A DNA stretch of 64,000 nt from Blasia pusilla (lineage: Eukaryota). Made by a program: the position numbers and the translations under genes. The stretch spans positions 24,862,001 to 24,926,000 of the forward strand of contig CM114271.1 of assembly GCA_050084515.1 (NCBI GenBank), read 5' to 3'. Under the pieces are notes generated by a model. The model was given only the letters and a program-made list of their open reading frames with translations. It was not told the DNA's origin and searched no databases. Below, piece by piece: positions 3,501-33,629 of this stretch. Each line of letters opens with the position of its first letter. Position 1 is the first letter of the stretch.

Positions 3501-3599
3501 CGAATTATCTCCATGTTCAGGTTCCATCAAAGCTCTTCTGTGAGCACACGGACAGACTAGGCCAATTTGTATCTCCAAGTTTTATAAAGATTTCAGTGA

Positions 3600-5215: not shown

Positions 5216-6987
5216 TGTCATGACCTTGCGGATTATGTCGTACAGTATAGTCTGCTAGTAGAGGCCATACCTTATGTAGGACCGTAGTGGCTAGGTAGAG
5301 ATGTGGTTTCATACATAGGGTTGGGGGTTACTCAGTTGGGGGTGACTTTCCCAGTAGGGCCCGCTCTTAGGTTGGAGGATATAGTGTGGCATGCACCCAA
5401 AGAACAGTCAGTTCTTTGAGTTGAGCCTGTTGCGTTGGGAGTTAGCCTTGGTAGTGAGTAGAGCTCTTGGCTATGGTGTTTCCCGCAAGCTTCGACCTAG
5501 ATTCTCCCATCGTGGAGTGGGTTTGGCTCGATTTATGTGATTCTATACGTGTTTTATGATAGTAGGTCCCTCACGGATTTCACTCAAAGAACTGGAGTAG
5601 ATTGATGGTAGCTTCGATTGTGGATCAGTAGGATCTGGTTAGGGCTGATTGTGTACTCAGCCGTGGATGTTTGTGGCTTGTGGCCTATGTTGGAGGTAGG
5701 AATCTGGTGCGTGGTTGGTTGGGAAAGAAGCGCTTTCTGAGAGCTTTCCAACGTGCTTTAGATCGCCGGATTTCATCAATGGAGTTGGAAGTTATCAAGG
5801 ATTGAAGATTCTGGTTCGTGTTTGTCGGTTTTCTGATGTGGAGAGCTTGGAGTGCGGAAGCTCTGTTGAAGCTCATCCAGATCGGGTGAGAGTTTCCTAT
5901 TGCTACTTGTATTGTGATCTCATGTCAAGCTATCTGCTTGAATGTGTGGAGCGTTGCAGATTTCTGCGTGCATGAAAAAGGGCGGAAGCGTTGTCGGATT
6001 TGCGATTCTGGAGGTGTATGGATAGCAAGTTTGTCTCACTTTTAGCTCGGAGTACAGAGCTCAATTGTACCTGATTTTTGTGGTGAGATAGCTATGGTGG
6101 TCAATTGAATTCTGGTTGAAACAGATTCAATTTTGGTCGAGGATTTGTGGAGTAATTGCTGATCAAAATTTTGCGGACTAACTCAAGGTCTATGGTGGAC
6201 AGCGGATCGGAGGGGTTGGTTGGTTGGTGACTCATTCATTGTTGGAGATGCCTATCCCGTTGGGGGCGCCCTGGTTGGGCCTCTCTCCATAGCAAAGCAT
6301 GGCAAACGGGGCGAAAGGGGCATGTCTCGAGCATTTTGAGGCTTCGAGGCAACTTGTGGTAGCTCGAGGCGAGTGGGAGTGAGAGGCGGAGTAAGGAGCA
6401 AGGAGCAAGGAGCAAGCAACCAAGCTTGCTTGCTTGGGCGTGAGGCAATTTTTTCAGGATTTGTGATTTGAGTGTTGCATAACTGGTCACCCATCTTTGG
6501 GCTATTCTGCCTAGAAGACGCTTAACTGCTGAGTTCTTAACTATGCCAGTGTATACACTGGTGTAGCTCATTTGGTGCTATTCGGAGAGGTGTTAGGCAT
6601 TTTATGCATCTCAGGTTTTTGGTTGATGGACCTCTAGCGCATAGTACGGTGTAGCCTCTCCATGCAGGTGATATTTTCAGGTGCTGCGAGTCCGAATAGC
6701 ACGTCATCGACCCGCGGCGGAGTAGCAATTGCGTTAGAATTGTGTGGTGGGTTCTGTGGATTCAGGGGATGCCACATTTGGTGGATTGTGTTATCTTGAT
6801 TTCCATTTGGGATTGGAGGATTGTCTTTGGACTTCCTCGGTTGGATCCCCTCCATCATTGCTTCTTGCCTGGCACCCATTGTTAGGGTTGATGCTGATTT
6901 CCAGAGTAGTGTTACTCCTGTGTGCTACCGGTAGTGAGGCTCGAGTGATGACCAGTAGACCGTGGGAGGCTTCTTGTGGTGATGACA
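5216..6987 (+). repeat. Putative 5' LTR of Gypsy copy A
   Basis: Non-coding G/T-rich block directly upstream of gag, starting TGTCATGA and ending TGATGACA (imperfect terminal inverted repeat). No partner LTR or clear PBS in the window. Confidence 0.4.
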
Positions 6988-7093
6988 CGTTAGGTTGCCT
7001 ACACCCATAGCTAGTAGAGCTAGAATAGTATAGCGACATCGACGTCACTTGGTTACTTAGTGGTGGTAATTTGGTGGTGGTGCGGCATCGGCG

Positions 7094-8640
7094 TTGGTCA
7101 TCACGGAGCTGTCGGGTGGTCTCGTTGGGGACCGTGGTACGGACAGTGGTGGTTTCACACAGAGTGGATTTAGGTATCGACTACCTTTTCCACTTCCGAC
7201 GGTTGATGAAGAGGAGGACGAGGGTGTTCCAAACACCGAGTCTTCTACGTTGTTATCGAGTGTTGCAGCTCCATTGATTTGGGACATGGACGGGATATAT
7301 GGGGCCATGAAGGGCCCACAACGATACTCGGGTGCAATGGGCACCATTGAGTTGGAGGACTTCATGGAGGAGTTTGATACGTGGTGTGATATGCAGATGT
7401 TGCGGAACGCCACGTTGTTTACACCCTTCTTAGCTTGGAAGGGGTTGTTTCACCACTTGGAGGGAACACCCATGGATGATTACCATAAGTTTAGGAAGGA
7501 CCATGTTGCTGAGATTGAGACGTGGAGATAATATTGGTCTCCAGGCTATGTGTCTATCACCCATGGTGGAATTGGTAGTAGTGCTCCTACTATGCCAGCC
7601 AGCCCGACGTTGAGTGGTACGAGTACGAGCCGGAGTGGGGATACCAGTGGAGGTACCCATGGAGGTAATAGTGGGGGTACTAGTGGAGGTACTAGTGCCC
7701 CACCATCGTTTAGCCCGGTTGCAGAGTTCTTCAAGAGGTTGAAGAAGAACTATCAGGGAGTGAAGACAGAGAAGTTGAGGAGTCTTCAGGAATTTGAGCG
7801 AAAGACTGGTGAGAGTCTTTGTGAGGCATACACTCATATGCGACGCTTGATTTCAGTTACCCAGGGTGTGACTGAGGCTGAGGCAATCCAGTTTTGGTAT
7901 GGGATCTTGGACAGAGAGTTGCGCCACACGGTACGTGATGCTACTCTTATGAGTGATGATTCACCCACATTGACCCATGTGTTTGCTCTATCTGAGAAGA
8001 TTGAGCTTAACATGGTGAAGGAGAGAGTGGTGACATCCGCATTCAGTAGGGATACAACTACTACTTCTCATGTTCCGGAGCCCACCTCATAGTCTTGTAG
8101 TAGTGGTGGTGGTAGTAGTAGTGGGAGTCGTGGGGGTACACACGACCTCAGTCAGGTCCTAGAGGGACACTTGCGCAGAGACCATTTCCTTCATTTGCTG
8201 CCCCGCAGCAAGGACAGTCATGTTGGACATGTGGAGGTGATCATGTTAGGAATTTTTGTCCCTAAGAGGATGGGAGACGGACTTTGGAGAATGGGCCTCA
8301 GTGGGCCCCAACTCAGTGTGATCATTGCGGGAGACCACGTCATCCTCGAGAGCGTTGCTTTGATCTTCATCCAGAGTTGAGATCAGGCCACGGCTGTGGT
8401 GGAGTAGCTCCGAGCGGCCGAGGTGGTAGAGGTGGTAGGGGTGGAAGAGGTGGACCAAGTGGTTGGAGAGCCTATGGTGGCCACCCCTTCCACTACGACA
8501 GAGTCAGCTATGGCTGCCAAGAATGAGCAGTTGGAGCAGAAGTTGGCTACTATGGCTGGTATCCAGCATAGATCAAGTTCGGGAGCAGGGGCTTCCATCT
8601 CTTATGGAGGGGATGATCTCTCTTATATGGCAAGTGCAGA
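7094..8640 (+). pseudogene. gag: Retrotransposon gag with two CCHC zinc knuckles and an RGG tract
   Basis: Gag-like segment FFKRLKKNYQGVKTEKLRSLQEFERKTGESLCEAYTHMRRL; knuckles CWTCGGDHVRNFC (~8221) and CDHCGRPRHPRERC (~8317); GRGGRGGRGG; in-frame stops at 7529 and 8090. Confidence 0.8.
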
Positions 8641-9219
8641 ATAGGTTGAGGCATTAGCTGTAGTTACAAGAGGAGCCACTCAAGCGTTAGAGCCACGTGG
8701 TGCTACTGTGGAGTTGGACCCATAGAGGGGTGAGGCTGGGAGGCAGGCTAGGCTTCCCCAGTCATTCTTGTTGTCTGAGGTGCTTAGGACTCCATCCATG
8801 GTTCCTACGCCATCTATTGAGCCAACACTGGGGACTGAGGCATCTACATCGCGTGTAGTAGACACGGATGCAGCATCCAGTGCAGTATTGCGAATGGCAA
8901 CTTCGGTGTTGGGATCCCCATTGTTTTCGGCCACGGAGCTGATGGCTTTAGGAGTTAACTTAGCTCCTGTATTTCAGCTAGCAGCCACGTTGTGTAAATG
9001 TGGGGGTGTTACTGCTGAGGTGGATGAGGGTGTTGCGGTGGAGCGACCCTCTATGTCAGGTGTAGCATTAAGTACCAGTGCTACTTGGCAGGCAACAACG
9101 GCGAAGATGGATGCATTACCAGCCCGGCCAGCCATTGATAGCGAGAGGCTTACACCTGGTGTATGTATGTTGGACAACTAGAGTGGGATATTCCGATTGG
9201 TAAGTCCTACAGGACAGAT

Positions 9220-9560
9220 GTATAGACCAGATAGAGTCTTGTTAGACTCTGGTGCCCAACCTTTGATGTTGGGAAAGGCGGCATGTATTGGTTTGGGTAT
9301 TCGGAGGTTAGAGCTTGAGCCTTGCCCATTCTAGATTCAAACATCACTTGGAGGATCCAATGAAAGGTCTCAATTCATGACACGGGAGAAGTTTTTTGTA
9401 GAGTTGAGACCAGATCATGCGACTGATAGCTCCCGATTTGGAGTACCTGTAGTGGTCACATCAGCCGAGTCGTATGATGTACTAGTTGGAGGAGCAATAT
9501 TGTACCCGATGGGTTTTCAAATGGATTATTGGACTGAGACAGCGTCTTATAGACCAAGTT
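9220..9560 (+). pseudogene. Retroviral-type aspartic protease domain
   Basis: YRPDRVLLDSGAQPLMLGK (catalytic DSG) and downstream ESYDVLVGGAIL. Confidence 0.85.
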
Positions 9561-9949
9561 GGCAGTCCGCGGATGGATGTATGAGCCAAGTTCCTGTGAG
9601 ATATATTTATGGGGCTCGACCAGGAGGATCTTCCCCAATAGTGTTAGCATCTGTGGCTGGTTTTAGTGGAGTAGTCACTTGGCCATGAGACTTTTTGGAG
9701 GGTAATGTTTCTGCTATGGATTCTCCTGTGCATGAGGAGATAGAGGAGGTCCCTATTTTTGCAGCAGTGGCATCCTCATCGTTGGATGTGCCACTTTGGA
9801 GTTCAGGCGATGCACTACGGCAAGAGGCTGATCGCCTAGTGCATGAGGCTTGGTGTGAGGCTATTATACCTCACGAGGAAGAGGAGGCCCCATGGCGGAC
9901 TCCTACTTCTGGTCCAGTTGGGTTATCCCTTTTGGATACTACACCCATT

Positions 9950-10920
9950 GTATGGCAGTATCCGCCGGAGGGCATTTGTGTGTTAGATCTCTTTGGTGGG
10001 ATTAGCACTGGTTTGGATGTACTATTGCAGGCCGGTATTCCTGTGCGGAGATACGTGTATGTGGAGCGAGATGAGACGGCCCAGAGAGTCTCATCCCGAC
10101 ATATTGGTCAATTGATGCGGAGATATCATGAGTTGTTTCCGCCATCAGCTATTCGTGGGTACCAACATGCTTTGCCGTCACACATTGCATTGTTGGTGGC
10201 AGGACCTTGAGAGGGTTGGTCATGTGGATTTGGTGAATCCTGGATGGCCATATCAGGGTCATACACGTGCTGGTCGTGGTGAGGGATTACACGACCCTAG
10301 GTCTTGATTTTTTTGGGAGATGTCACGGGTGTTACGACATCTTCAGGTTCATCAGGCACGTGCTCCAGCTTACATTCTGGAGAATGTTCCATTGTTGGGT
10401 GACACTTACACCCGGATGATGGCGAATGTTCATGAGGTGCGGTCTTGGATTGGACCAGCGGTGTTGTTGGATGCAGCGCGAGTTGGCTCGCGTGCACATT
10501 GTCCACGCTTGTGGTGGACAAACTTGTTGCCTAGGGAGGTTCTACGTCGAGCATATGATGCAGTGCAGCGGGATCCTTGCCTTACAGTGGATAGTATCTT
10601 GGATACTGGATGACTTTCTCAGGTGGTGAGGGTTATTGATCGGTCACCCATGGCAGTGGTGAACCATGTGGGCCAGCCTAGGATGGCACTACCCATATTT
10701 GTGAGTTTTCCTCGTCATATGCCTATAGGGAAGGTGGTCCCGGGCTTGTATGGGATTCTCATGTGCGATAGTTGGTGGAGCCTAACGCTGATGAGAGAGA
10801 GAGCGTGCGATGGGATTTGCTATTGGTGTGACAGCGGTTGCTTCCAATTCTGAGGCTTCACGATGTTATGTGTTGGGTCAGGCCATGGACCTGAATTGTT
10901 TGGCTTGGATTTTGAGTCTT
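9950..10920 (+). pseudogene. C5 cytosine DNA methyltransferase domain (DNMT3-like) within pol, copy A
   Basis: Motif I VLDLFGGI (9980-10003); II YVYVERD; IV VDLVNPGWPYQG (catalytic PC read as PY, 10248-10253); VI YILENV (10371-10388); VIII SRAHCPRLWWTN; IX EPNADE/RERAMGF; X LGQAMDLNCL. Broken by frameshifts and stops. Confidence 0.9.
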
Positions 10921-11229
10921 GGTATGGCCGAGCAGCGTCGACTTCGGACTATGTCTATGGGTCTTCCACCCCTTGTAATGAGCTCGATGGCTACCGGGAC
11001 GGTAGAGGCATCGGTGGAAGCAGAGAGAGTAGTATTTTGCATCATTGGAATAAATGGGATGTAATGGCTGGGCATGTGGAGTTGGTTGCTCATGCTAGTG
11101 GAGGAGTTATTTGCTTAGATGATGGTGTAGCTAAGGGTGTACCATTTTGTGAGGGGGTTGCGTAGCAGCCAATGGCATCGTCCTCTCCCTCTAGTGTGCC
11201 AGTGGAGGAGACTTGGGAGCCATTATTGG

Positions 11230-11962
11230 TGCCCCAAGCTTACGGGAGGTGAGAAACGACGCTTGACACAGTTCCTACATGCTTATAGTAGTTGTTTTGT
11301 CTTTAGCATGAAGGAGTTGGATGCTCTGGTTGGACCCGGTATACGGATTGATTTGGCTATTGATACGCCAATCTTCCGTCGTCCCTATCGATATAATGAT
11401 ATGGAGAGGGATCTGATTCAAAGTAGGACGTTGGACCTTTTGGAGGCTGGATTAGTGGGGTTATCGCATGGAGAGTATGCATCAGCCAATGTCATGCGTG
11501 CTAAAAAGAATATGCATGGCAACCACACCAATAGGCGGATGTGTGGAGATTACAGTCCTATCAATCAGCAAACCAAGGCCGATAGGTATGCCATGCCTAC
11601 ACCTGAGGAGATCTTTGATGTGGTGGGACAGGCAAAGATTTTCAGTACTTTGGATCTTCGGGCAGGATACCATCAATTGCCGATTCGGGAGAGTGACAAG
11701 GCCAAGACAATATTTTGGGGTGTCAATTCTCATGGCAAGGATTGTTTGTGCCAGTGGAAATTCTTACCCTTTGGGTTGAAGAATGCACCTGCCGAGTTTC
11801 AGAGAGTGATGGACAAGATCCTAGCTGGGTTGGATTTTTTTCGGTGTTACATTGATGATATCTTGGTGTTCAGTAACACGGTGGAGGAGCATCAGATACA
11901 TTTGCAGATGGTGTTTGAGCGGTTGAAAGCTCATGGTCTACGTTTGCATCGAGGAACATGCA
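11230..11962 (+). pseudogene. Gypsy reverse transcriptase, truncated, copy A
   Basis: [70 protein letters not shown]. Confidence 0.95.
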
Positions 11963-12755
11963 CTCCTCCACTATGAGGACTTTATAAGTCTTCTTTATAG
12001 AGTTTCCGATTGTGAACATGTCAAAGATCTTCAATGAGCGGATGTGAATTATCTTCGGGACATACCCTTTGTTAACAAGAGTTTTAGCAGCCCAGAGAAA
12101 ATAGTGTCTCATTCGCGTAAAGGTGAGGATAGTGATATCTTTTCCACGCCTCACCATTTGTGCTCCCTCAAGGCAACATACACAGTTCTCATCCGGAATT
12201 GTCTCCTTTAAGTTGTATAATAGCACATGCCCAAAAAAAATCACAGGGTTGTTACTTTGAATGGTAGCCTTCTTGAGACCTTTGGTTTTGTAGGAAGTAA
12301 AGCAAGCAACTAATTTCAATCCAGGCATAGATTGGAAGTAGGATTCCAACCGATGAGAGTATTTTACCCCGAGTTTTAATTTTCTATCCAGTCCACAGGT
12401 GACCTGAACCTCTGATAACACATCGGATAGTGAAGTGGCCTCCCGAGTTCTAGTGTAGCATTACACAATTGTTGGAGATCCGGTTGTAGGTCAACAATAG
12501 GAAACCCAAGTTCATGCCTTCTATAACTTGCGGAAATCCAATCATGGCTGCATCAATTGCTATCCCTATGAAGGAATTTTCAGCAATTGGAGTGTCCAGC
12601 AGCCTCTAGTCACCAAACTTTTCTGCAAAGCCTTTTGTAACTTTGTAAGAGCCAGCACTATGACCAACATCCTCTCCCATGAGACAAACTCTAGGGTCTC
12701 TCTCCATCTCCTCTACAAGACCCTCATGTAGAGCTTCATATATAAGAAGCTCATG
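11957..12755 (-). pseudogene. pdhB: Plastid pyruvate dehydrogenase E1 beta subunit pseudogene/captured fragment
   Basis: [56 protein letters not shown]...[11 protein letters not shown]...[14 protein letters not shown]...[16 protein letters not shown]...VLIVEECM. Contains stops and frameshifts, no introns seen, 3'-truncated. Confidence 0.9.
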
Positions 12756-13859
12756 CATGCTTGTCAAGACAGTTTACGAAGCACCAATCCCTAGCTCTCG
12801 CGGCCCTAGCGCGCACCAACTTTGTCAACCTCAACTCGCAGCCCTTGCACGCATCTCGCTCACAATCTCGACTTGCTCTCGATTGTTTTGCTATTAGGAC
12901 CAACTCAACTTGCTCCAACATTTGAATCTCACTCCCTCAATTCATCCATACCAATGCACAAACGTTGTAAGATGCAAATTTTCTTATGCAAACCCTAAGC
13001 AATAGTTAAGGGTCATGACACACTCTGAAGAGCACCCTAGGCGGGTATTTTCTCACCCGCCCTTTAGCTCGATCCCTCCCGCCAAAACTTTCGCATATCA
13101 TTTTCCATATTTTTCTAGTTCTCATCCATATATATATTCTCCTATCTAAGTTATAATTTCAAAAAAAAGTATACTACTATTATACCTTCCATGTCATTAA
13201 TTAAAAAATATAATAATTAAAAATATTTTCACTATTTCAAATTTTATATGGACAAGTTTTATCGTTGTTATAAAACTTAGTTCAACATAATTTAGTGCAT
13301 GTGACTCCAAAAGGATTTTAGATAAGACACAATATTCTCAAATTAATATAAAATAAAACTATGTAATATTAAATTTTTGGAAGGAAAAATAAAATAACAT
13401 ATAATTTTTCTAGTCCATATCTATTACACCTTTATCTCCATCCCTTTCCTAAACTCTCACCCTTCTCTCAATTTACAATAGTAAGTAAATGTGACTCTAA
13501 TATCTTGTAAGTAATTCAAGAGTCAATTAATTGGTTTTGGCGTAACAACGAGTAATTTAAATGACTCTTAGTAATACGAGTCACAAACATGTGGATTCAA
13601 AAAGGCCTTTTTTCTACCAATATATTTATGTCTGGTGACAAAATACTTGAGAAAGGGGAGAGGGGGGAATATTTGAGAGTGAGAGTGAGAGTGAGGGAGG
13701 GGTAGGATAACCCCTCTCTCCCCAATTCCTGGTTTCTGTCTCATGACAGAAACCTTGGAGAGGGGAAGAGGGAGGAAACATACACTTAGGAAAGGGAGAG
13801 AGTGGGGGAGGGGGCCAAATACTTGATGTTTACTTTTGTTGTTATAACAACAACAACAC

Positions 13860-14390: not shown

Positions 14391-14484
14391 AATGGGCCAA
14401 GGCTTCACCTTCTTTGCTTTGAATCTGACTCCCTAACTCTCTCCCTTGAAAAATAAGGGAGAGAATGGCATTAGGGTTTGACTA

Positions 14485-19483: not shown

Positions 19484-20400
19484 TGCAACCCGTCGGACTC
19501 TGACGGGTTGCATGATTCCTCGACAAGGGAAATCTAGGCGAGGTCCCTGTGCAACCCAACGGACTCCGACGGTTTGCATGGGGTCCATGCATCCTAGAGG
19601 GCCATCATCAACGTGCAACCTATAGAACTTTGATGGGTTGCAAGGACAAAGGTGGCCAAGGGGTTGCAAGTTGTCAGATTCGGACACATTCTCGATCATT
19701 GTCGGGACTTCCCTAAATCCCATGTAACCCTTCGGACTCCGATGGGTGGCAGGGGGGGTAAGATCAAACTCGGCTGTCCCTAGGGTTGGTGGGGAACATA
19801 AGGAAATCTTCTTCGCTTTCTCTCCCACCATTCTGAATGTTGCCAATAGTTTCAACCCCATCTGATTGCAACCTGACAGAACCTAACATATTTGCGACAT
19901 GTCGGACTCTGAAGGCTTGTAAGTTTTCGGAGTCACAGAGTTTGCAAGGGGACGAATTCAAAAAATTTGCAACGAGACGGACTGCAAGGGTTTACAATCT
20001 GTCAAACTCTGTCGGGTGGCAACTTGGCGGAGTTGAACAATTTGCAAATAGTTAGATTCCGAAAAATTTGCAACCAGACCAATTTTGTGGATTTGCAACA
20101 TGTTGGACTCAGACGGGTTGCAACTTGTCAGAGTCCAATGATTTTCAATCATTTGGATTCCAAAAATTTACAACATTTTGGACTCCGACGGGTTGCAACT
20201 TGGCGGAGTCAGAAAATTTGCAAATAGTTAGATTCCAAAAAATTTGCAACCAGACCAATTCCGTGGGTTTGCAAACTGTCGGACTCCGACGGGTTGCAAC
20301 TTGTCAGAGTCTGAAGTTTTGCAACCATTCGGATTCCAAATATTTGCAACCTGTCGGACTCTGATGGGTTGCAACTTGTCGAAATCCAACGGGTTGAACT
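19484..20400. repeat. Second array of the 29-bp palindrome, including a ~177-bp tandem duplication
   Basis: Near-perfect copy at 19484-19512; further copies at ~19550, 19614, 19723, 19893, 20095, 20170, 20270 and 20345; duplicated units start at ~20019 and ~20196. Lies between the divergent MULE genes. Confidence 0.9.
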
Positions 20401-24147: not shown

Positions 24148-25423
24148 TGTCGTATAGTAAAATCAGCCAGTGTGTAAACTCCTTCCTCGTTAAGTGTTAG
24201 ATAGAGTTTTATTGGCATTAAGTAAATTAGGTTAGGGAAAGGAAGTTCACATGTTTAAACACTTTTTATGGTGCCTCTTTAATACGGGCCAAACTTTAGG
24301 AAAAGAGGTAATAAATAAAAGATGACTTTATAAAAGTAAAGTAGTGAGGTTGGTACTTTAATGAAAAGCAAAAGTAGTCTTGGTTGGTGGCTATTTTTGT
24401 TTGGGTAATTTGGAAAATATCAAGTGGGTAAAAGAGGATATTTTGGAAGAGATAAGAGGAAATCTATTTGTGTCAAAATATGATTGGCTAAGCCTTGAGA
24501 GGAAGCCATGTGGCACAAGATAAGATTAGCTCTATTTCGTACTCTTGTGGATCACTTGTGAGTATATAAAGAAGAGTGACCTTCAAAGGTTCATCACCTT
24601 CTATTCCACATCTTGAGTCTCTCGTGTCACTCTTGAGTGTATGGCTTTGGGATTGCTTTCTCTTCCAATGAGAGCGGATCATCCCCTCTTGGGAAAGTAA
24701 CTTGACCATGGTCTATTCTTCGAGAGGTTTATAGAGTGTGGTGTGTGTCTTTGGAGATGAGAGGCTTGTCACCTTAGAGGAGTTTAGTCATGCTAAAATA
24801 GTGAATTTTTTTGGCTTGTGATTTTCCCAATGAGAGTGGATTATCCCTCTTGGGAGAATAATTCTTCCAAAACCCATTCTTGAGGAGAGTAGAGAATGTT
24901 TGTCAAGCATGGATAGGGATGGAGCACGAGTTGTGCCCGACTTTCCTTTCCTCAATCCATACAATGTCAAGGTACTCTTTGTAGATAAGCACTAGTTCAC
25001 TCGGTATTTAGTTTATCACTTTGGGGAGGTGTTCATGAACCAAGTCATGCAATCTCCAACTCCGATGATTCTTCCTATCGTCACATATGGAAGTACATGG
25101 GATTGTACTCTGTATATCCTTATATAGCGATCCATGGTTGTCAATAGACTTGCTCAAGTAAGGATTAATACTAGTTGTGCTATCTTCCTCGTGTACAATC
25201 ATAAAAGAGTTTATAGGGATTTTATAGTTAGAAATGTCGATGTTACGAAGAAATGATCGCCTCGGCACTTCCATTCATGATATCTATCGTGAGAGAATGG
25301 AGAGTATACATAATAATTTTTTATTGAATAAGGAGAAACTCTTAGAGAGTTCACCTTGCATCGATCACGTCTGCCTCAGCTAGAAGGTCTGCCCTTACTT
25401 GAAGAAAGGCTCTTGACACGGCA
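24148..25423. mobile_element. Solo LTR (or LTR-like insertion) in the MULE transposase
   Basis: Begins TGTCGTAT and ends ACACGGCA (TG..CA, imperfect inverted termini); flanked by direct repeat CCGG at 24144-24147 and 25424-25427; non-coding; transposase-like sequence resumes after it. Confidence 0.7.
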
Positions 25424-28164
25424 CCGGGGATCAATTGAAGTACTTCTGCCCAAATGAATCATGCACTTTCCAAAAGTCTTATCCGGCTACCATTGGAGCT
25501 CTAGGGAATACCCCAACAATTTGGCCCATTGCTACAACTACCAATTGCACTCAAGAGGAAGTGGACAATCTTACAAGTGTCGGATTCACACTCGTAGACG
25601 GAGGAAGTTCGGAACGTGTTTGCATTACAGAGATGTTTGCATTTTGGATCCAACCTAAGATTGATGTCAACATGTATCCAGAGAAGATGGATGATCTCAA
25701 TCCACTAATTATGTTCGAGTCAAAAAATGGGGTAAAGAGAAACAAAATTTGTAGACCAACAGTGGAAAGAGCAAAGCGAATTGCATAATCTCGGGAGGCA
25801 AATATGGAAATCATCGCCATAAAAGATGTTCATCGTGGCAATGGAATATGAAGGATGTATTGAGTCAAGAACAGCACTGTGAATTCAAGTGTCACAGGGG
25901 TGTATGTGGTATGGTACATATCTGTTGCTTTCCCACATGTTCCTGTGATGACTTTGTCCAAAGAGAGACAACTGGGAAAAGATATTTCCCTTGTAAGCAC
26001 ATGTACTATGTGTTGCTTGTAGTTTTAAGAGAGTCAGAGATAGGAGTAGGAATCCACCAACCAATTTTTTTCCCTCAAAGAAGTGTGAAGTATCTTAAAC
26101 AAACCACGTTGAAGATGGAAAATGAGGTCTTAGATTGTACTTTGAAGTGCCAGAATGTTCACGATGACCTTGAACTCTAATCAGCAAAGGAAAAATGATG
26201 AATTTTTTCAGACCTTGGATGGAAAATGTGATTTGTTCCACATTTTGATTCCAATGATTTTTCATGTTTTTTATTTTGTGCAAGTTGCAACCCGTCAGAT
26301 TGAGACGGTTTGCCAGAATGTGGAAGAGGAAAAACCAATCTGTGGGAGTGACTAAGCATAGAGAACAAATTGCAAAAATACTCACCAAAAATCTTCCTCT
26401 CTTCAACCCAACGGAAACTGTCTTCAAATCACACGAAACTCTCTTAAAATGTAGTTTCCTCTCTCCTCTCACCGCGCCTCGGGGAGGCCACCCTTACCTC
26501 AATGTGATCATTGTTAGAGATATGGGCACACACGTGAGAGATGTTTTGAGCTCCACCCCGATCTGTGCCTAGAGGGAGATTGAGGACCTCAAGGTGGCAG
26601 AGGACAAGGTGTAGGAGGACGAGGACGTGGTGGAGGCAGGACCCCACCACCTGCCAGAGTGAGTGCAGCACTTGCATCAGAGGCAACTTTGGCGAGGATT
26701 GCTCAGTTGGAGCAACGCCTTCAGGCTATGACGGCCCAACAAGCATCTTCATCGGGTGTAGGGGATGCGTCGAGGGATCAGCTAAGGCCTAGGATATGAT
26801 GGGAGATCTAGGAGTTATGGGATTTTTGTGCAACATTGCATAGGTGGATGCAGATGCAGTGGTTACAAGAGGTGCGATAAGAGCTTCTAAGCCGTGAGGA
26901 TCTGATGTGGATTGGATCTCCAAAGGGTGGAAGCTGGCAGGCAGGCTACACTTTCCTAATCTTTCACATTGTCAGAGGCTCTTCGGACCCCATCGATGGT
27001 CCCTAGACGGCCTTTGAGGAGTGTTGTTGTCGCAGATACCGATGTAGTTAGAGGAGCGGGTGAGGCGAGTATGTCTACCAAGCCCATGCAGCATTCGACA
27101 CGTCCTAGCACTGGCACGTTACAAGAGATGGCAACGACATTGTGTAGCGTCCCACTATTTATGGCCTGAGATTTGTTGACATGTGGAGATCGATCAGCTA
27201 AGGTCTTTTGGTTGGCAGCGATGCTATGTGAGAGCGATGAGTTTGGTTCTTCTAGTGTTGAGACTCGCACAACAGATGTGGCACAGGTAACCTTGGAGCA
27301 GGTGGTTGAGACAAGGATCACAGAGAGTTGGCATGCAGCAACGGCTAGAATGGCAGAGTTGCCAGCTAGACCATCGATGTAGCGTGCAACCGTCTCACCA
27401 AGAGTTGTTGTCCTGAACAACCGAGATGGAGTTTTCTACTTGGTTGGTCCATTTGGAGTCATGTATCAACCGCAAAGAGTGCTACTTGGTTCAAGATTAC
27501 AACCCCTTATGTTGGGGAAGGCATCATATGTAGCAATGGGTTGCGAAAGTGTGAGATCACTCCATGTCCAATTCCAGATTCAAGCTTCATTGGGAGGCAC
27601 ATCCCTGACACAGTTCATGACTCGCGATGAGATTGTAGTGAGGATTCGGCCCAATCATCCTACTGATAGTGCGATGGTGTGGACGTGATCGGTTGTGACA
27701 CCTGCCGAGTCTTATGATGTTTTGGTAGCGGCTATCGTATGGTATCCTCTAGGTTTCACACTTAACTTTTGGGAGGAGACAACTTCCTATTGACCAAGTT
27801 GGCAGTCAGGTGCCGGACGAGCCAATCAGCTACCCGTGCAGTATGCAGGGAGACTCGATGGGTTCACTTCGAGGGTCAACCACAACAATTTCTGCTTATT
27901 GTGGCATGTTATGTTGGCCTTGAGATTTACTGGAGGGGAACGCCGATGTAGAGGATAGTCATGAGGAGTGGCATGCGATGACGAGCGTGGCTACATCTTT
28001 TGGCGACACTTCTTCAGCTTTGTGGTGGGACGAGCATCCATTTGCAGAAGAGATCAGACAAGCTCAAGAGGCAGGCATGAAGCCGAGCCTATGCTCTAGA
28101 TCAAGACAAGATAGAGTTACCATATGCTCTAGGAGTGGAGACGTTAATACCCTTGGACACCACA

Positions 28165-28960
28165 CCGATTGTGTGGCAGTATCCCGAGGAGGATGTACTT
28201 ATACTAGATCTCTTTGGAGGGATTAGTACATCGTTGGTTGTAGTGTTGCAGGCCGGAGTACAAGTACAGTAGTACTTGTATGTTGAGAGAGATGAGACTG
28301 CATGAAGAGTCTCATTACATCATGTGTCGAGACTAGTCCAGCAATATCCTCAGTTATTGCTAGTGTCTACAGTCATGGGATACCATAGGTATTTTTGGCT
28401 GACATTTCATTGTTGGGGGCAACATATGTGGATAGGTTTGGTCCAATATACTTGGAGGTGGCAGGGTGGCCATGTTAGGGTCATTCTTTGGCGGGTTGGG
28501 GACTTGGCTTGCAGGACCCGAGGTCGACCATGTTTTGGGAGATGTTGCAAGTTCTTTGACACTTGCAAACTACCCAACAATGTTCTCTAGCTTACATTTT
28601 GGAGAACGTCCCATTGTTGTTAGTGTGGAGGACATTAGGATTTGATGTTGGATGCGGCAGTGTTGCTATGGGACATCTTTTACCATCAAAGTTCTTGGCG
28701 GGCTTTGATTAGAGCTTACAATGGAGTTGTTACTTATGATGATGTACCACCATTGGGTGTTCAAATCGTTAGTGAGTTTTCCGTCATCTCATGCTTTTTG
28801 TGGCATGATATGGGTTGAGCATGCAAGTTGGTGGAGCCCAACGGAGCAAGCGAGCTATGGGGTTCTCTGGTACAACGTGTGCCTATGATGGCGAGGCATC
28901 ACGAGACATCTATTGAGTTAGGCTATGGACCTAAAGTGTCTTACTTGGGTGTTCAATCTT
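28165..28960 (+). pseudogene. C5 cytosine DNA methyltransferase domain (DNMT3-like) within pol, copy B
   Basis: IVWQYPEEDVLILDLFGGIST; YLYVERDETA; VAGWPC*GHS (PC at 28470-28475); LQDPRSTMFWEM; AYILENVPLL; internal deletion; then VEPN..RAMGF and AMDLKCLTW. Confidence 0.88.
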
Positions 28961-29299
28961 GGTTGGCTTATTAGAGACGGATGCAAGAGGTATCTGTGAC
29001 ATTACGTCCACTTTTTCAGCGTAGCGTCTTTCAGGACGCGTGAGACATTGGCTCGGGGCACGATGGTGATGGAGAGGCATCCATGGACTTCATGGGATAT
29101 GTCACGAGAGCACATAGAGATGGGAGTTCATTTCGCTCATGCAAGACATAATGGAGTGCCAAGAGACTTGGTGTCTAAGTTGGGAGCGAATATTGCTGCT
29201 TCAGAGGTTGGTAGTTAGCAACCACCACCCTCCTCTTCTCCAGAGGTCACGAGAGAGACTTGGGAACCAGTCATTGGTCCTAGGTTGATAGGAGCGAGA

Positions 29300-32060
29300 G
29301 GAGATGAGTGTTGCAATTCTTGTGGAGATTCAAGGACTATTTTGCATATAGTGTGCACGACTTGGGTACGCTAAAGGGTCCAAGTATTTGGATCGAGTTG
29401 TATAGTGATACTCCTATCTTCCGATGACCCTACTGGTATTCCAACATGGAGCGAGCCTTGATTCAGAGTAGGAGTTGAGACTTGGCAGACGTTGGAGTGG
29501 TGGAGAGATCACTTGGGGAGTATGCTTCTGCCACAATTATGCCAACGATGAAGGATGCATGGCCACTAGATCGATAGGTGGATGTGTGGAGATTACCATC
29601 CTATCAATTGGCGTATGAAGGCCGATCGCTATGCTATGCCTACTCCCGAGGAGATCTTTGATGCGGTGGGGCATGCAAGGATCTTTAGTTGTTTGGATCT
29701 CCATGCTGGTTATCATCAGTTGCCCATCCAAGTGGAGAACAAGGAGAAGACAACATTTTGGGGGATAGATCCTTTCGGGAAGGATTGTTTGTACTAGTGG
29801 CGGTTCTTACCATTTGGTTTGAAGAACGCCCCTACGGGTTTTCAGCGAGTTATGGATAGGATTTTGGCTGGTTTGGATTATGCAAGATGTTACATCGATG
29901 ACATTATTGTCTTCAGTACCATGGTCGAGGAGGATTAGAGACATCTGGAGGAGGTGTTTCGATGATTGCAGTTACATGGGCTCAAGTTACATCTAGGCAA
30001 GTGCAAGTTCTTCCATGACCAGATCGAGTACCTTAGACACACCAATTATCCAGGGGGTATTGGAGTTGAGTAGACAAAGATGGAGGCCATAGCGCGCATT
30101 CCCCGCCCTACAGATGTGAGTCGAGTTCGAGCTTTCATGGGATTGGCAAACTACTACCGACGGTACGTGAAGGGCTTCAGTGCGATTGCAAAGGCACTGA
30201 CTTTGCTAACTAGGTTGGAGAAGGAGTGGTTTGGGGGAGATGATCAGGAGCAAGCATTTCAAAAGCTCAAGGATAGGTTGAGGTCCTCGCCCTTTTTGAG
30301 GAGACCTATGGGTGATCGTGCGTTATAGTTACATATGGGCTGGAGTATGTTGGGGTTAGGAGCGGTGCTCACTCAGAGAGATGATGGAGGGAAGGAGTTT
30401 GTAGTGGCATATGCAAGCCACTCAAACAACACTGCGGAGGCGAAGTATAGTTCCTATGAGGGGGAGTGCTTAGCTGCAGTGTGGGCAGTGGCCCATTTTA
30501 CATGTTATTTGTTCGGGAATCCTTTCACTGTCATCATTGATCATCAGCCCCTCAGATGGTTGATGGAGTCTGACAAGCTACAAGGAAGTTTGCCAGATGG
30601 TCACTCTTGTTGCAGGAGTATGATTTTCATGTTGTCCATCGCCCAAGACATTTGAACAAGGATGCGGACAGATTGAGCCGTAACCCATGAGCCACAGCGA
30701 TGCGACTTGAGTGTGGTGGCATGGTGAGAGTTATGAGGAGATGGTGGTGAGTTGGCATGCACATGCCAATTTGTGTCTATTGGCTGTGTCATGTCAGCAT
30801 GAGGCATCCACTCCATGAGGGAGGATGGATGCTAAGTCCTCAGATCCACATGCTAGTGAGGAGTCGACAGCGATTGGAGACATCCACCATAATGAGATGG
30901 TCTTGGAATACCTATGCATTGGTGTCTTAGCAAGCACGGTGGATGCTAGAGAGCAAGATCAAGTCCTACAACAAGCCAAGAGGTTCAGGTGGGAGGGGAC
31001 GCATGTGCTTCCAGTTTGGGAAGATGGACGAGTGCGGATGGTGCCACATCCTTTGCAACAAACACGAGTCGTGAGACATGCTCACAAGGAGTTAGGGCAT
31101 TTTGGAGTCAAGCGTACGTATAGCTTGATTCAAGTTCAGTATTGGTGGTGTGGTATGCAGACTAATGTTCAGCAGTTTGTAGAATTGTATGTGATAGGGT
31201 GTGGCCATCGTTCAATGCTCCCACACCACACTTGCATCCTTTACCGATCATGGGATAAGGATATCGCTCGAGTTTAGATTTTGCAGGGCCTTAACCATTG
31301 ACGGGATGCCGTAGTCCATACGTGTTGGTCATGGTGGAGTCCTTCTCCAAGTGGAATGAGTTGGTAGCGTTGCCGGATAGGTCAAGTGAGGGAGCGGTTT
31401 ATGCATTTCTTGATGAAGTGCTTAGTCATTCCGGCGCACCAGCAGAGGTGTTGAGAGACCAGGGTACTGAGTTTAGGGGTGACTTTCCGCCTTGTGTGAT
31501 CAAACACTGATAGATCATCATACGACTTCTCGAGATCATCTGAAGGCAGATGGTTTGGCAGAGAGAGTTGTGGAGACGATGAAGAGAGGACTACGCAAGT
31601 ATGGATTGCAGAGAGGACACTTGGGAGATTGGGACCTACAATTGGCGTGGTTGGCGATGGGTTATCGCTTCAGTTGGCACGCATCCTTAGCGTCATTTTC
31701 ATTGTATTTCTTGCTCTATGGGAGAGAGCTAGAGTTACTGGCGTTGATTCGACGAGATGTGGTTCAAGTGCTTGACTTCGACGATCCAAACGTACGGGTA
31801 TGACTGTCTTCTCAACGGGTGGAGAACGTGGCTATCGCTCAGCATTGCGATACTCTAAGGTACACGACTACAGATGGAGGAGGCTATCGACCTGGATTTT
31901 GCGATTCCATCCTGACGATTATATCTACCTACAGCAGACAACGCCGACGACATTGGACGTGATGGCGGGATGCACTATTCTGCGAGTGCAAAATTTTACC
32001 TTCATGAGTCCTTGTTTTAGAGGGTCGTGATGGTACCTTTTGGAAAGATCATGTGCGTAA
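29300..32060 (+). pseudogene. pol: Gypsy RT-RNase H-integrase region, copy B
   Basis: Gypsy domain order RT-RH-INT with the motifs listed above; many stops and frameshifts. Confidence 0.93.
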
Positions 32061-32135
32061 TTTGCACCATGTCATCTTCCAAACGTAGATGGGAGGATTG
32101 ATCCAAGCTTTGCAATTGTTCCTATAGGCTTGAGA

Positions 32136-32276
32136 TGCATGTTGTGTGGGTCTACCAAAGGTGCAGCCACGATGCTAGTTTGTGATGGGTGTTCTCGAGG
32201 ATGGCATATGTCGTGTTTGACGCCGACTCTTGACTTGGTTCCTTAGGGACGTTGGCTTTGTCCCATATATACTTAG
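32136..32276 (+). pseudogene. PHD finger at the C-terminus of the retrotransposon integrase
   Basis: CMLCGSTKGAATMLVCDGCSRGWHMSCLTPTLDLVP*GRWLCPIY fits C4-H-C3 with the PHD W-x-C signature; the last Cys is read as Tyr (TAT). Confidence 0.9.
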
Positions 32277-33629
32277 TTGTGATAGTTTGATACAAGATGC
32301 CTCTTGGTGTTATGGATTGCAGGAAGGTAACTAACGATGGAGCGACATAGCACCCGACCTCCTGATCTTAGCACCAAAAAGGTGCATAGCATTTAGACAT
32401 GTTTTGTAGGCTATCTGGAGTTAGAGGGACCTAACCACCAGCTAGGGGGGCGATTGGGTTTGTCCAGTTGTTCAAGTGTAGAGATGCTAGGATTCATAGC
32501 TAGATAGATCTTACACATGTGTGTTCATGACAGTCGATGTATGTTGGCAACGATGTGTATTCGCACGACAACTGTCATGGTAGATGAGGCGTAAGGCGAG
32601 ATAGTATCGAAGCCTTAGAGGGGTCTTGTACTTCCCTATTTTAAGAGGTCATATGTGACCTACTCTTAGGAGGTGACCTACGAGTGTAGGTCACCCTTCC
32701 CTTTATGAGGAGTGGCAATCTTGGAGAGGTTGACCTTCCCGGCCATGTATGGTTGGGAAAGTTCGAATAACATCCTATCTAATGTTTGAAAGTCTCTTCT
32801 TGAGGTATATTCTTATTACTTTGATTTTCTTATTTCATATTTTCTTCCTTTACGCAGACTTGGATTTAAAAGTGTTCTTTAGCATACCTCCTTTTTGTAT
32901 TTCCCCCAAAACGACCAATTTCTATAACAAAAACTAATCAAAGAAGTAACATGAGCATGATAACTTAGTGAGTTATATATCAAAAATTTAATTTCAAATG
33001 TACTTTAAGATGTACATTTGAATGGAATTTAACCATTGGGAAAATGGGCAGAGTGGTTTGCTAAATTAGGGATGAATTTCACTCACCAAACTCACCACCA
33101 TTGCCATACGAACAAACATATATACTAATTTTAGTTGTTAGACTATATTCAGTATTTATGGAGAGTAAACTAGATGAATTTCTGCCCCCTACCATGTCTT
33201 ATGTGAATGGGACTTTCCATCATGATTATATTGTGAATGTCACGCTTTTTGTAACAAGGATAGATTTGAATTCAAATTAAAACTATTATGTAATAGCTAT
33301 TGATAAAAGTGAAATCATATATAGACCTAAAAAGCAACCCTCCCAAGGATCTTCTAACTCAAGGTTAAGTTATCTAAACCATGGACTTTCGAATGGATAG
33401 AAGAATCAAATACCTAATGTTCCGTATCCTAATGTGAAGAACATTATAGCTCTATGGACAATATCTCCCCTCCAAATCAACAAGTCATAGCTAGGTTCAA
33501 GTATGGTCTCCTGCCCCGAGTTTTTTCCGAAGTCCTCCCTCTTATCTAACTCGCCTTTGACCATCCTTGAACTAACTCGAGGATAAATAGGGAATAGGAA
33601 TTTGACTAAGAAACATTGTTATAGTGCTA

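Follow-up and report, generated by a model that had tools for sequence, protein, structure and literature searches.

Two decayed copies of a Ty3/Gypsy retrotransposon family with a DNMT3-type methyltransferase domain in Blasia pusilla

Two decayed Gypsy copies in the window

The DNA analysed here (the window) comprises 64,000 nucleotides of Blasia pusilla contig CM114271.1; coordinates refer to window positions, and all features described lie on the plus strand. Two diverged Gypsy copies, A and B, were found, each with a C5-methyltransferase domain between protease and reverse transcriptase (RT), as an earlier note, made from the sequence alone, had claimed.

Copy A, a decayed Ty3/Gypsy element truncated at RT, occupies 5216 to about 11956. 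Position 5216, the start given in the earlier note, is the exact first base of its 5' LTR, TGTCATGACC..., as seen from alignment with the LTR pairs of two relatives, L079 and L069 (92% and 88% identity, respectively, within each pair). The LTR (5216–5583, 368 nt, TG...CA) finishes with ...TTTCA and is followed by the leader (5584–7285, assigned by position between LTR and gag start), which, by blastn offsets, exceeds that of related loci by about 500 nt. The gag region (7286–8403) matched residues 1–358 of the Marchantia protein P0009 in tblastn with 56–67% identity; the match is split over two frames with 2 in-frame stops, and a CX2CX4HX4C zinc-knuckle region is located near 8320–8365. The gag C-terminus and aspartic protease (8465–9688) correspond to the 5' portion of a longer tblastn match, 8465–10201 (P0009 residues 384–956, 64% identity, 5 stops overall); the protease retains the DSG Asp codon at 9245, and LLDSGAQPLMLGK is present. 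The DNMT3-like domain (9944–10920), delimited by translations and similarity to relatives, with which it shares 70–80% identity, is spread over three frames and contains three stops and a Tyr at the position of the catalytic Cys. ORF1 ends at 11163–11171 with an in-frame TAG followed by CAG CCA, which fits UAG-CAR-YYA; altogether, ORF1 of copy A is interrupted by 10 in-frame stops and by 5 frame changes. The N-terminal part of RT (11233–11956; PF00078, E 3.8e-24) is free of stops and 74% identical to ORF2 of locus L038.

Copy B (about 26503–32453) is likewise a decayed Ty3/Gypsy element, more damaged than copy A, and its 5' end is absent. Of the boundaries proposed earlier, the start at 5216 stood; copy A ends at about 11956, and copy B extends about 170 nt beyond the proposed 32280. 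The parts of copy B are a gag remnant (26503–26754; tblastn, P0009 residues 334–420, 47% identity, 2 stops), the gag C-terminus with a protease remnant (26912–27853; tblastn, P0009 residues 460–760, 42% identity, 5 stops), in which Gly replaces the active-site Asp, and a DNMT3-like remnant (28129–28963; translations, and PF00145 on 28401–28619) in several frames, with a stop immediately 3' of the catalytic Cys and motifs VII–VIII deleted. The in-frame TAG CAA CCA at the end of ORF1 (29216–29224) precedes RT and RNase H (29246–30592; PF00078 E 2.4e-23, PF17919 E 1.8e-27, PF17917 E 2.2e-24), with 9 stops against L038 ORF2. The integrase (30690–31617) scored slightly below the cut-off with PF00665 (E 3.2e-7, 31 bits) and was also aligned by tblastn to the ORF2 products of L075 and L038 and to protein P0050; at its C-terminus lies a PHD finger (32136–32264; PF00628, E 6.5e-11, 42.5 bits) with one stop and a damaged final Cys pair, homologous to the PHD finger of the intact L075 ORF2. 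Similarity to family loci in blastn ceases at 32453, the end of the 3' tail (32265–32453); no 3' LTR of copy B was recognised.

Domain order is that of Gypsy elements (protease, RT, RNase H, integrase). Self-blastn showed the copies to be colinear and diverged, with 70% identity between 8641–8807 and 26840–27005, 66% between 9932–10397 and 28153–28619, and 73% between 11339–11916 and 29384–29959. All methyltransferase motifs listed in the earlier note were recovered in three-frame translations: in copy A, LDLFGGI and YVERD in the frame of 9689, GWPYQG, YILENV and RAHCPRLWWTN in that of 9690, and ERERAMGF and AMDLNCL in that of 9691; in copy B, LDLFGGI, YVERD, GWPC*G (the asterisk denoting a stop), YILENV, KRAMGF and AMDLKCL. 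Motif VIII occurs in copy A only and was not found in copy B, which has about 107 nt at 28619–28726 versus about 70 codons in relatives. The catalytic motif is broken differently in each copy, and GWPCQG as the ancestral form agrees with WPCQG in 15 of 16 aligned relatives. A search with PF00145, proposed as a check, succeeded for copy B (27.7 bits, E 2.3e-6) and fell just short of the cut-off of 22 bits for copy A, where 10200–10613 read through stops gave 20.9 bits (E 2.7e-4); unjoined ORF fragments searched alone yielded no match.

We are fairly confident that the window contains two dead, truncated copies of a single Ty3/Gypsy LTR-retrotransposon family with a DNMT3-type methyltransferase, and that each copy represents a different, diverged lineage of it. 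Both copies are pseudogenes and yield no enzyme; hence nothing is made from them. Related copies are transcribed: three RNA runs, tied by species label only to the DNA data set that best matches the window (0.45 of the window's sampled words), contained 2231–2988 reads at ≥85% identity, which covered all 30 bins of the element. Most reads were 90–99% alike, first mates were overwhelmingly of the minus strand, as expected for sense RNA, and reads differed in length from copy A at its frame-break sites and extended past its position 11956 into further RT sequence.

Architecture of the family and the ORF1–ORF2 junction

Intact relatives are bounded by LTRs of about 340 nt (TG..CA), the first of which is followed by a leader of about 1.1 kb. 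ORF1 encodes Gag with zinc knuckles, then the aspartic protease and the DNMT3-like domain; a single in-frame UAG, with CAA or CAG directly after it, separates ORF1 from ORF2, which continues in the same frame and encodes RT, RNase H, integrase and a C-terminal PHD finger. The DNMT domain, which had been placed inside pol, does not lie within a continuous pol but is the C-terminal domain of ORF1, with a conserved in-frame stop before RT. In L075, ORF1 (1369 aa; protease, DNMT) and ORF2 (1047 aa; RT, RNase H, integrase, PHD) lie in one frame with one TAG between them. PWWP and ADD domains were not detected in ORF1 by Pfam. The nearest solved relatives of the PHD finger are those of CHD4, PHF12, PHF21A, KDM5 and UHRF1, several of which bind unmodified H3K4.

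Frame changes around the domain in both window copies could, taken alone, hide insertion boundaries, as if the domain had been captured only once or had inserted independently into the two Gypsy copies as a fragment of a host gene or as a further element. This is contradicted by the unbroken Gag-PR-DNMT ORF of L075, by the constant position of the domain in proteins of Marchantia and Sphagnum as well as in 59 loci which also contain the start of ORF2, by the absence of repeats of its own flanking the segment in the window, and by RNA and DNA depth without a gap over the DNMT bins. We regard an origin by one-off capture or nested insertion as exceedingly improbable.

The homologous stop at the end of ORF1 was present in 54 of the 59 loci (35 TAG, 19 TAA) and was followed by CAA or CAG in all 54; in the window, copies A and B alike read TAG-CAR-CCA. 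PMC3542737 gives UAG-CAR-YYA as the type I readthrough consensus. The conserved in-frame UAG-CAR suggests that ORF2 may be expressed by stop-codon readthrough. Termination-reinitiation, an internal start or splicing could serve as well, the stop merely closing ORF1; this seems to us a rather doubtful alternative, even though an in-frame ATG stands two codons past the stop in 47 of 54 loci (CAA CCC ATG) and in copy A, and a large moss-like group (TAG/TAA CAA CCC ATG) departs from the strict CAR-YYA at its final base. Besides the two window copies, only 5 of 54 loci (4 with TAG) have this strict context. The ATG is missing, however, in copy B, L038, L073, L075 and L077, ORF1 and ORF2 share a frame in every intact element, at least 50 codons directly upstream of the stop are open in 43 of 54 loci, and none of the 54 loci and neither window copy has lost the stop, the common frame or CAA/CAG.

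Identity, selection and possible role of the methyltransferase

The designation DNMT3-like was borne out by profile and fold. Compared with PDB entries, the family profile ranked DNMT3A (E 2.5e-11) ahead of DNMT3B, DNMT3C, DRM (3.8e-7), DNMT2 and M.HhaI (2e-3). An AlphaFold (AF2) model of the domain (pLDDT 92.1, pTM 0.91) had 6w89_A (DNMT3A) as top Foldseek match (E 8.6e-19, target TM 0.83), and the matches listed, down to rank 50, were all DNMT3A, DNMT3B or DNMT3C. Intact copies retain GWPCQG and ENV; the catalytic Cys is invariant, and Glu and Asn of ENV nearly so, in 43 diverse relatives down to 29% identity. We know of no DNMT3L-like partner of the family enzyme.

As judged from substitution ratios, the DNMT domain is under purifying selection: dN/dS between intact copies was 0.14–0.16 (L075 vs L077, 0.035/0.254; L004 vs L038, 0.284/1.80). 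Over all pairs it was 0.52 for DNMT vs 0.38 for RT, which indicates that decay dominates most copies. The domain was free of stops and gaps in only 4 of 80 metagenome loci, and any ORF of at least 400 aa occurred in only 6 of 80.

A selected domain need not methylate DNA; it could methylate RNA, or act as a nucleic-acid- or SAM-binding module in particle assembly. The position in ORF1, adjoining Gag, would fit RNA handling, the domain of KnitGypsy-Dnmt3 from Klebsormidium nitens, the sole relative with a published assay, gave no DNA methylation in yeast, a result its authors call inconclusive, and RNA methylation was raised by them for another element class (PMC5890265). Yet all the DNA-methyltransferase motifs, catalytic Cys and ENV among them, are kept across the relatives, the nearest folds are DNA-bound DNMT3A/3B and not DNMT2, and CpG is depleted even in intact elements (observed/expected 0.28–0.55), as expected of CG-methylated DNA, of which host enzymes could also be the cause. 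A role apart from DNA methylation appears quite unlikely to us.

ORF1 would yield Gag-PR-DNMT in Gag-like amounts, and occasional readthrough of a putatively leaky UAG would add an RT-RH-INT-PHD fusion. Inside the particle the protease would free the DNMT, which could then methylate the new cDNA of the element or the insertion site, and the PHD finger may read histone H3 tails and thereby steer integration. As a whole this scheme is tentative, and we consider it possible but somewhat doubtful.

Distribution and comparison with known elements

The family, by similarity of its sequences, is present across bryophytes. Four bryophyte genera (Marchantia, Riccia, Calypogeia, Sphagnum) contain relatives with 60–80% identity, as do 129 of 275 pattern-matched metagenome stretches; these loci were retrieved via their DNMT, so that relatives without DNMT could not appear. 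The DNMT piece of copy A matched 55 database proteins (E 6e-64 to 1e-11), well beyond chance similarity; the species named among these 55 of 353 candidates at E≤1e-3 were Marchantia polymorpha, Calypogeia fissa, Riccia sorocarpa and members of Sphagnum. There were 62 longer proteins matched, Mesostigma and Haematococcus among them, and 306 representative proteins at E≤1e-30. The same architecture in proteins of the four bryophyte genera and in metagenome loci agrees with the earlier view that this was not a one-off capture. A land-plant host, also assumed earlier, is corroborated by a TilS-like ORF in the window, nearest to liverwort proteins (63–69% identity; moss 55%, fern and lycophyte 49–53%).

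Bryophyte sequences formed one clade (SH-aLRT 99) and Marchantia was monophyletic (100); copy A branched next to the groups of Marchantia and of Sphagnum, and copy B took a deeper position within the bryophyte clade. Short branches between host groups, and a DNMT identity of copy A to Marchantia/Sphagnum (74–78%) exceeding that of the TilS-like ORF to Marchantia (68–69%), could point to horizontal transfer between bryophytes instead of long vertical persistence. This is unlikely in our opinion, since sequences group by host genus (Marchantia 14/14 in one clade, Calypogeia 4/5; 4/4 Sphagnum proteins in one clade with SH-aLRT 99, whose other 18 members are environmental sequences) and the window itself contains two lineages whose DNA differs by about 30%.

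The kind of element is already known, as the earlier note had stated for algae: KnitGypsy-Dnmt3 was described from a streptophyte alga (de Mendoza 2018, PMC5890265). No published report from bryophytes was found in the literature; the window copies extend to land plants an element type whose printed descriptions come only from algae.

In chromoviruses, which are also Ty3/Gypsy elements, the integrase terminates in a chromodomain; the bryophyte family similarly has a chromatin-reader module fused to the integrase end, presumably guiding integration in both cases, but the reader is a PHD finger. Gammaretroviral gag-UAG-pol is an example of leaky-stop expression. The tobamovirus type I signal (PMC3542737) shares the in-frame UAG before the polymerase, the abundant upstream product and the following CAA/CAG. 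Unlike these viruses, the family is a plant retrotransposon with an upstream product including protease and DNMT, strict YYA in a minority and a putative readthrough. Catalytic domains of animal DNMT3A/3B/3C (PDB 6w89, 6f57, 6u8p, 8tci) are the best profile and fold matches, with motif order I–X; they are only 20–23% identical, and the family enzyme would be made within a Gag-PR polyprotein.

The comparison with the Klebsormidium elements rests on the published description rather than on K. nitens sequence. KnitGypsy-Dnmt3 is likewise a Ty3/Gypsy element of a streptophyte; its coding region includes a DNMT3-type domain that is not rearranged and is reported to keep key catalytic residues with Ka/Ks <0.2 (PMC5890265). 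Its host is a charophyte, whereas the bryophyte family lives in land plants (liverworts, mosses), its DNMT closes ORF1 before a conserved in-frame stop, and it has ordinary LTRs, compared with a DIRS-like repeat structure per the figure legend in PMC5890265; the family integrase ends in a PHD finger, and the term PHD does not occur in the text of that paper. SymbioDIRS-Dnmt3 and SymbioLINE-Dnmt of Symbiodinium are also retrotransposon-encoded cytosine methyltransferases under purifying selection, and the SymbioDIRS enzyme carried out de novo CG methylation in yeast, but they belong to DIRS and LINE classes and another eukaryotic supergroup and are described as an independent capture (PMC5890265). 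EpiLTRs and DAM-carrying LTR elements, as presented in a preprint (bioRxiv 10.64898/2026.05.21.726589), also combine DNA methyltransferases with a chromatin-reader domain, but these are adenine methyltransferases, a DNMT4-related cytosine methyltransferase and a chromodomain; the streptophyte Gypsy-DNMT3 is cited there as a separate, earlier case.

Copies A and B and their methyltransferase segments

Copies A and B, two decayed Ty3/Gypsy copies on the plus strand, were colinear and far diverged, sharing three blocks of 66–73% nucleotide identity. Copy A has a 5' LTR of 368 nt (5216–5583, TGTCATGACC...TTTCA), as delimited against the paired LTRs of two related metagenome elements (L069 and L079); the start at 5216, as placed by the earlier note, is exactly the first LTR base. 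Marchantia polyproteins aligned with copy A from the start of gag at 7286 to 11010; this alignment comprises six segments, changes frame five times and includes ten in-frame stops. The RT was aligned over 11233–11961. Similarity to the family stops at about 11956, where copy A ends; RNA reads from related copies extended past 11956 into RT sequence which is absent from the window. Copy B starts within gag at about 26503, followed by protease, DNMT, RT, RNase H, integrase and a PHD finger (32136–32264), with nucleotide similarity to the family up to 32453; its ORF1 part contains at least 17 stops and its ORF2 at least 13. A repeat search of the window found no LTR pair, because each copy has lost one end. 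Judged by their reading frames, both copies are unable to make protein.

Directly adjoining the cut end of copy A is a contiguous, intronless open frame of 196 aa on the minus strand (11870–12460), which comprises the end of Transket_pyr and the start of Transketolase_C; it may be a piece of a processed or captured gene. Just upstream of the shortened 5' end of copy B, an ORF at 25755–26180 (plus strand) resembled the SWIM zinc finger weakly, at 16.4 bits and so under the cut-off; it may be a remnant of a Mutator-like transposase.

Three-frame translation of copy A (9689–11200) yielded, in standard order, LDLFGGI, YVERD, GWPYQG, YILENV, RAHCPRLWWTN, ERERAMGF and AMDLNCL, i.e., motifs I, II, IV, VI, VIII, IX and X, with tyrosine replacing cysteine in motif IV. 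The corresponding translation of copy B (27900–29500) yielded LDLFGGI, YVERD, GWPC-stop-G, YILENV, KRAMGF and AMDLKCL; the stretch of motifs VII–VIII is missing, with about 107 nt (28619–28726) in place of about 70 codons in relatives. All motifs claimed previously for the two copies were thus recovered, scattered across three reading frames in each. The catalytic cysteine is intact in neither copy, being changed to tyrosine in copy A (GWPYQG) and followed by a stop in copy B. A consensus of 16 aligned relatives contained all motifs and read GWPCQG, the sequence which the earlier note had proposed for the ancestor, with cysteine in 15 of the 16 and tyrosine, as in copy A, in one. An environmental protein of 251 aa (P0034), an independent family member, reads WPYQG, with the same change from cysteine to tyrosine as copy A.

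Scores with the Pfam DNA_methylase profile (PF00145, cut-off 22 bits) were 51 bits for ORF1 of the metagenome element L075, 35 for Marchantia proteins and 27.7 for copy B; the central piece of copy A, translated through its stops, reached 20.9 bits, just under the cut-off. Raw, unjoined ORF fragments of the window copies gave no Pfam DNMT match; the match appears only when stops are read through.

Relationships and distribution of the family

When a profile of 16 sequences was compared with all PDB chains, DNMT3A ranked first (E 2.5e-11), followed by DNMT3B, DNMT3C, plant DRM (3.8e-7), DNMT2 (1e-3) and M.HhaI (2e-3). A structure prediction from 16 close relatives, a shallow alignment, was unusable (pLDDT 39.6); the model from 43 diverse sequences, down to 29% identity, reached pLDDT 92.1 and pTM 0.91. 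The Foldseek matches listed for this model were DNMT3A, DNMT3B or DNMT3C catalytic domains throughout, down to rank 50, the top one among them with E 8.6e-19 and a target-normalised TM of 0.83, at 20–23% identity. By profile and by predicted fold, the catalytic domain of the family is therefore nearest to DNMT3, as compared with DNMT1, DNMT2, DRM and bacterial enzymes. Its motif order is unpermuted, whereas that of plant DRM is permuted. Pfam found neither PWWP nor ADD in L075 ORF1 or in the Marchantia proteins; DNMT3 carries both as N-terminal domains, whereas the family has neither in ORF1 and a PHD finger in ORF2 instead.

A search with the central DNMT piece of copy A returned 55 proteins (E 6e-64 to 1e-11, 56–80% identity), among them gene models from Marchantia polymorpha, three Sphagnum species, Calypogeia fissa and Riccia sorocarpa; many matched the 333-residue domain without any gap, and several also contained RT and RNase H domains. 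Profile searches for longer proteins gave a first tier of about 50% identical sequences, all environmental, and a second tier of about 40% identical full polyproteins, in which a zinc knuckle and protease are combined with DNMT, RT, RNase H, integrase and PHD; Mesostigma viride and Haematococcus lacustris are represented in this second tier. The numbers of representative proteins matched in an exhaustive profile search were 3934 (E<=1e-3), 1019 (E<=1e-10) and 306 (E<=1e-30), with lengths of 1000–3400 residues in many cases; one of ten representative clusters looked up bore an organism name, a "pol" of Scenedesmus sp. No protein of Klebsormidium nitens was among the named matches of the protein searches, and the nearest named algal relatives were those of Mesostigma, Haematococcus and Scenedesmus. 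Of the 275 matches to the pattern in JGI metagenomes, 129 encoded relatives; 80 metagenome loci were fetched for the analysis of elements.

In a tree of the DNMT domain (95 rows, proteins with fewer than 190 profile positions excluded), the bryophyte sequences formed a single clade (SH-aLRT 99), within which those from Marchantia (n = 14) were monophyletic (support 100). Copy A stood beside the Marchantia and Sphagnum groups, with its exact placement not resolved, and copy B formed a long branch deeper inside the bryophyte clade. In three distant relatives (P0098, P0099 and P0101), the DNMT is placed behind RT and RNase H and not ahead of RT; the position of the DNMT is therefore not fixed over the wider superfamily.

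Element layout, the stop between ORF1 and ORF2, and the PHD finger

ORFs of at least 400 aa were present in just 6 of the 80 loci. A complete element was L075, in which ORF1 (976–5082, 1369 aa) encodes protease and DNMT, and ORF2 (5086–8226, 1047 aa) follows in the same frame after one TAG, encoding RT, RNase H, the zinc-binding and core domains of integrase and a C-terminal PHD finger; the junction is the same in L073 and L038. The Ty3/Gypsy order of PR, RT, RNase H and integrase was found in L075 and in copy B. Related elements have a total length of about 8.8–9.0 kb, and the LTRs of L069 and L079 (328–342 nt, 88–92% identical) have TG...CA ends. Element L038, otherwise intact, contains a second in-frame TAG (3192–3194) between protease and DNMT; either this codon arose by recent mutation, or it is another stop under regulation.

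A homologous stop codon was present in 54 of the 59 loci having the start of ORF2 (35 TAG, 19 TAA); the following codon was CAA or CAG in all 54, and in 43 of them the upstream frame was open over at least 50 codons. Several Marchantia and environmental gene models terminate exactly at this stop. The junction reads TAG CAG CCA in copy A (11163) and TAG CAA CCA in copy B (29216). The earlier note had placed the DNMT inside pol: it does lie ahead of RT, but as the C-terminal domain of a Gag-PR-DNMT ORF and not within a continuous pol, as seen from the L075 junction and the stops in 54 of 59 loci. The observation made there is otherwise confirmed, and its interpretation is supported with these corrections.

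UAG-CAR-YYA is given as the type I readthrough signal of tobamoviruses in the accessible text of PMC3542737. The full CAR-YYA context occurs in both window copies and in 5 of the 54 loci, four of them with TAG. Alternatively, ORF2 could be started by reinitiation at an ATG after the ORF1 stop; a large moss-like group, which reads CAA CCC ATG after the stop, offers such an ATG. Readthrough of the stop is the reading followed below.

The PHD finger (PF00628) at the C-terminus of the integrase was located at 8053–8187 in L075 ORF2 and at 32136–32264 in copy B. Chromoviruses carry a chromodomain in this position, whereas no chromodomain was found at the integrase C-terminus of L075 ORF2 or copy B, the PHD finger standing in its place. 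Among solved structures, this finger is closest to the PHDs of CHD4, PHF12, PHF21A, KDM5, ATXR5 and UHRF1, several of which read unmodified H3 tails. By analogy, and as a lead only, the PHD might read such tails and direct integration away from active promoters.

Selection, transcription and possible role

Decay in the family is mainly by point substitution: 73 of the 80 loci contain 1–10 stops in the segment where the DNMT aligns best, and the alignment is gap-free for 67 of the 80. A DNMT domain free of both stops and gaps was found in only four loci, all of which have kept WPCQG and ENV, and the catalytic cysteine was invariant across the alignment of 43 sequences. Since synonymous sites between copies A and B are saturated at 66% nucleotide identity, intact metagenome pairs were used for dN/dS (Nei-Gojobori): L075 versus L077 gave dN 0.035 and dS 0.254, and L004 versus L038 gave dN 0.284 and dS 1.80. 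The dN/dS test of the DNMT proposed in the earlier note came out in favour of its stable lineage between these intact copies (about 0.14–0.16); over all pairs the median was 0.52 (666 pairs, 37 gapless loci), and for RT it was 0.38 (91 pairs, 14 loci). Such all-pairs values are expected from neutral decay after insertion mixed with selection on active lineages. In their dN/dS, the intact copies are similar to the Klebsormidium elements, for which the published Ka/Ks is <0.2.

Observed/expected ratios of CpG were 0.57 in copy A, 0.59 in copy B, 0.55 in L075 and 0.28 in L038, compared with 0.70 in the remaining window; this depletion is consistent with long-term CG methylation, whichever enzyme was responsible. 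Copies A and B, L075, L038 and L079 also have a strong skew of G over C on the coding strand (0.2–0.25), and in the same sequences, intact elements included, the CpA excess (1.43–1.56) is higher than that of TpG (1.15–1.33).

Three RNA-seq runs were used, carrying the species label of the best-matching DNA set, which contained 0.45 of the sampled words of the window. Samples of 6–12% of each run gave 2231–2988 reads on copy A at >=85% identity, covering 30 of 30 bins at a depth of roughly 8–180. Just 13–20 reads per run were >=99% alike to copy A and most were 90–99% alike; the reads therefore come from other family members. First mates were overwhelmingly on the minus strand, which in usual stranded libraries means sense RNA. 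Length differences between reads and copy A were located at its frame breaks, where the transcribed relatives are therefore unbroken. Mismatches with A/T in the window and G/C in the reads outnumbered the reverse (e.g., 100+70 versus 48+51 in one run), as expected from the direction of deamination decay of copy A. In DNA contigs of the best-matching set, the depth of the DNMT bins was not below that of gag and RT. The family appears to be transcribed, and its catalytic residues are kept under selection.

The window also contains an intronless ORF of 488 aa (58823–60289, plus strand) for a tRNA(Ile)-lysidine synthase (TilS, PP-loop), with 69% identity to Marchantia paleacea, 68% to M. polymorpha, 67% to Riccia fluitans, 63% to Calypogeia, 55% to a moss, 53% to a lycophyte and 49% to a fern. 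Nuclear liverwort gene models were nearest, and chloroplast-encoded and cyanobacterial TilS more distant; the window therefore belongs to a liverwort or a closely allied plant, different from the species named in this comparison. An intronless trehalase ORF of 573 aa (40449–42170, plus strand; PF01204, E 2.6e-164) has a GC content of 58.5% and a CpG observed/expected ratio of 1.12 in far AT-richer surroundings, and the Protein Atlas clusters nearest to it were for the most part TreA/TreF of bacteria. The plant may have acquired this gene, which would be of bacterial type, or the assembly may contain foreign DNA here. An exon-like ORF on the minus strand (53773–54324), which matched the Noc2 domain at E 2.1e-22, is presumably part of a host gene. 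Tandem-like direct repeats with units of about 101 nt, 61–85% alike, occupy 19890–20400, with start-to-start spacings of 101, 75, 101 and 25 nt.

The architecture and fold of the family, the conservation of its catalytic residues, selection on it and its transcription are shown above; beyond these, a cycle may be proposed. Genomic RNA would be translated as Gag-PR-DNMT, and a minority of ribosomes would read past the UAG, adding RT-RH-INT-PHD. The protease would release the DNMT inside the particle, placing a putative de novo methyltransferase beside the nascent cDNA; the element could then insert pre-methylated, or methylate its landing site. DNA marked in this way might pass as silenced, escape recognition as foreign or restrain the element's own copy number, possibilities which the accessible text of PMC5890265 discusses for algal elements. 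According to the same text, the one Gypsy-DNMT3 domain assayed in print gave a negative result, which the authors call inconclusive. The comprehensive version would be a transcribed bryophyte Gypsy lineage with its own epigenetic toolkit, in which a DNMT3-type enzyme would be made at Gag level from ORF1, ahead of a leaky UAG resembling that of tobamoviruses, and a PHD-tipped integrase by readthrough. The element would methylate its cDNA or landing site and pick chromatin by histone state; the self-written silencing mark could let it pass as already silenced or limit its copy number, and the lineage may have swapped DNMT3 catalytic domains with its plant hosts. Taken as a whole, we consider this version rather unlikely. 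The position of the DNMT in ORF1 before a leaky-looking stop and the PHD-tipped integrase do provide concrete hypotheses on dosage and targeting.

Since cytosine methylation is the main weapon of plants against transposons, a transposon with a methylating enzyme is counter-intuitive. To our knowledge, transposon-borne DNMTs are documented in print solely for a charophyte alga and dinoflagellates. Marchantia polymorpha is transformable and has published methylomes; with the family widespread in liverworts and mosses, including this species, the role of a transposon-borne DNMT3 becomes testable. Public family sequences are annotated as hypothetical proteins or host methyltransferases, and Marchantia and Sphagnum models named "DNA (cytosine-5-)-methyltransferase" or "CCHC-type domain-containing protein" are transposon ORFs and not host DNMTs.

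As far as the accessible texts go, KnitGypsy-Dnmt3 of Klebsormidium nitens and elements of Symbiodinium were described in 2018 (PMC5890265), a "streptophyte Gypsy-DNMT3" is mentioned in bioRxiv 10.64898/2026.05.21.726589, and DNMT3s embedded in retrotransposons "in streptophytes" are mentioned in PMC12344493. No report of DNMT-bearing Gypsy elements in bryophytes was found in the accessible parts of PMC12344493, PMC11982613, PMC6453930, PMC9033089 and bioRxiv 10.1101/2021.02.12.428880, nor, for bryophytes or other land plants, in the full-text literature as far as accessible; supplements, e.g., the DNMT catalogue of PMC12344493, may list them. A readthrough-coupled arrangement of writer and reader in a land-plant transposon was likewise not found reported in the literature. 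The principle is thus already published, while presence in land plants, apparent activity and gene layout seem unreported. The present family extends the known systems by its range in land plants, a tractable model among them, by the place of the DNMT in ORF1 before a conserved stop that looks leaky, and by LTRs of the ordinary kind, an integrase with a PHD tip and evidence of transcription.
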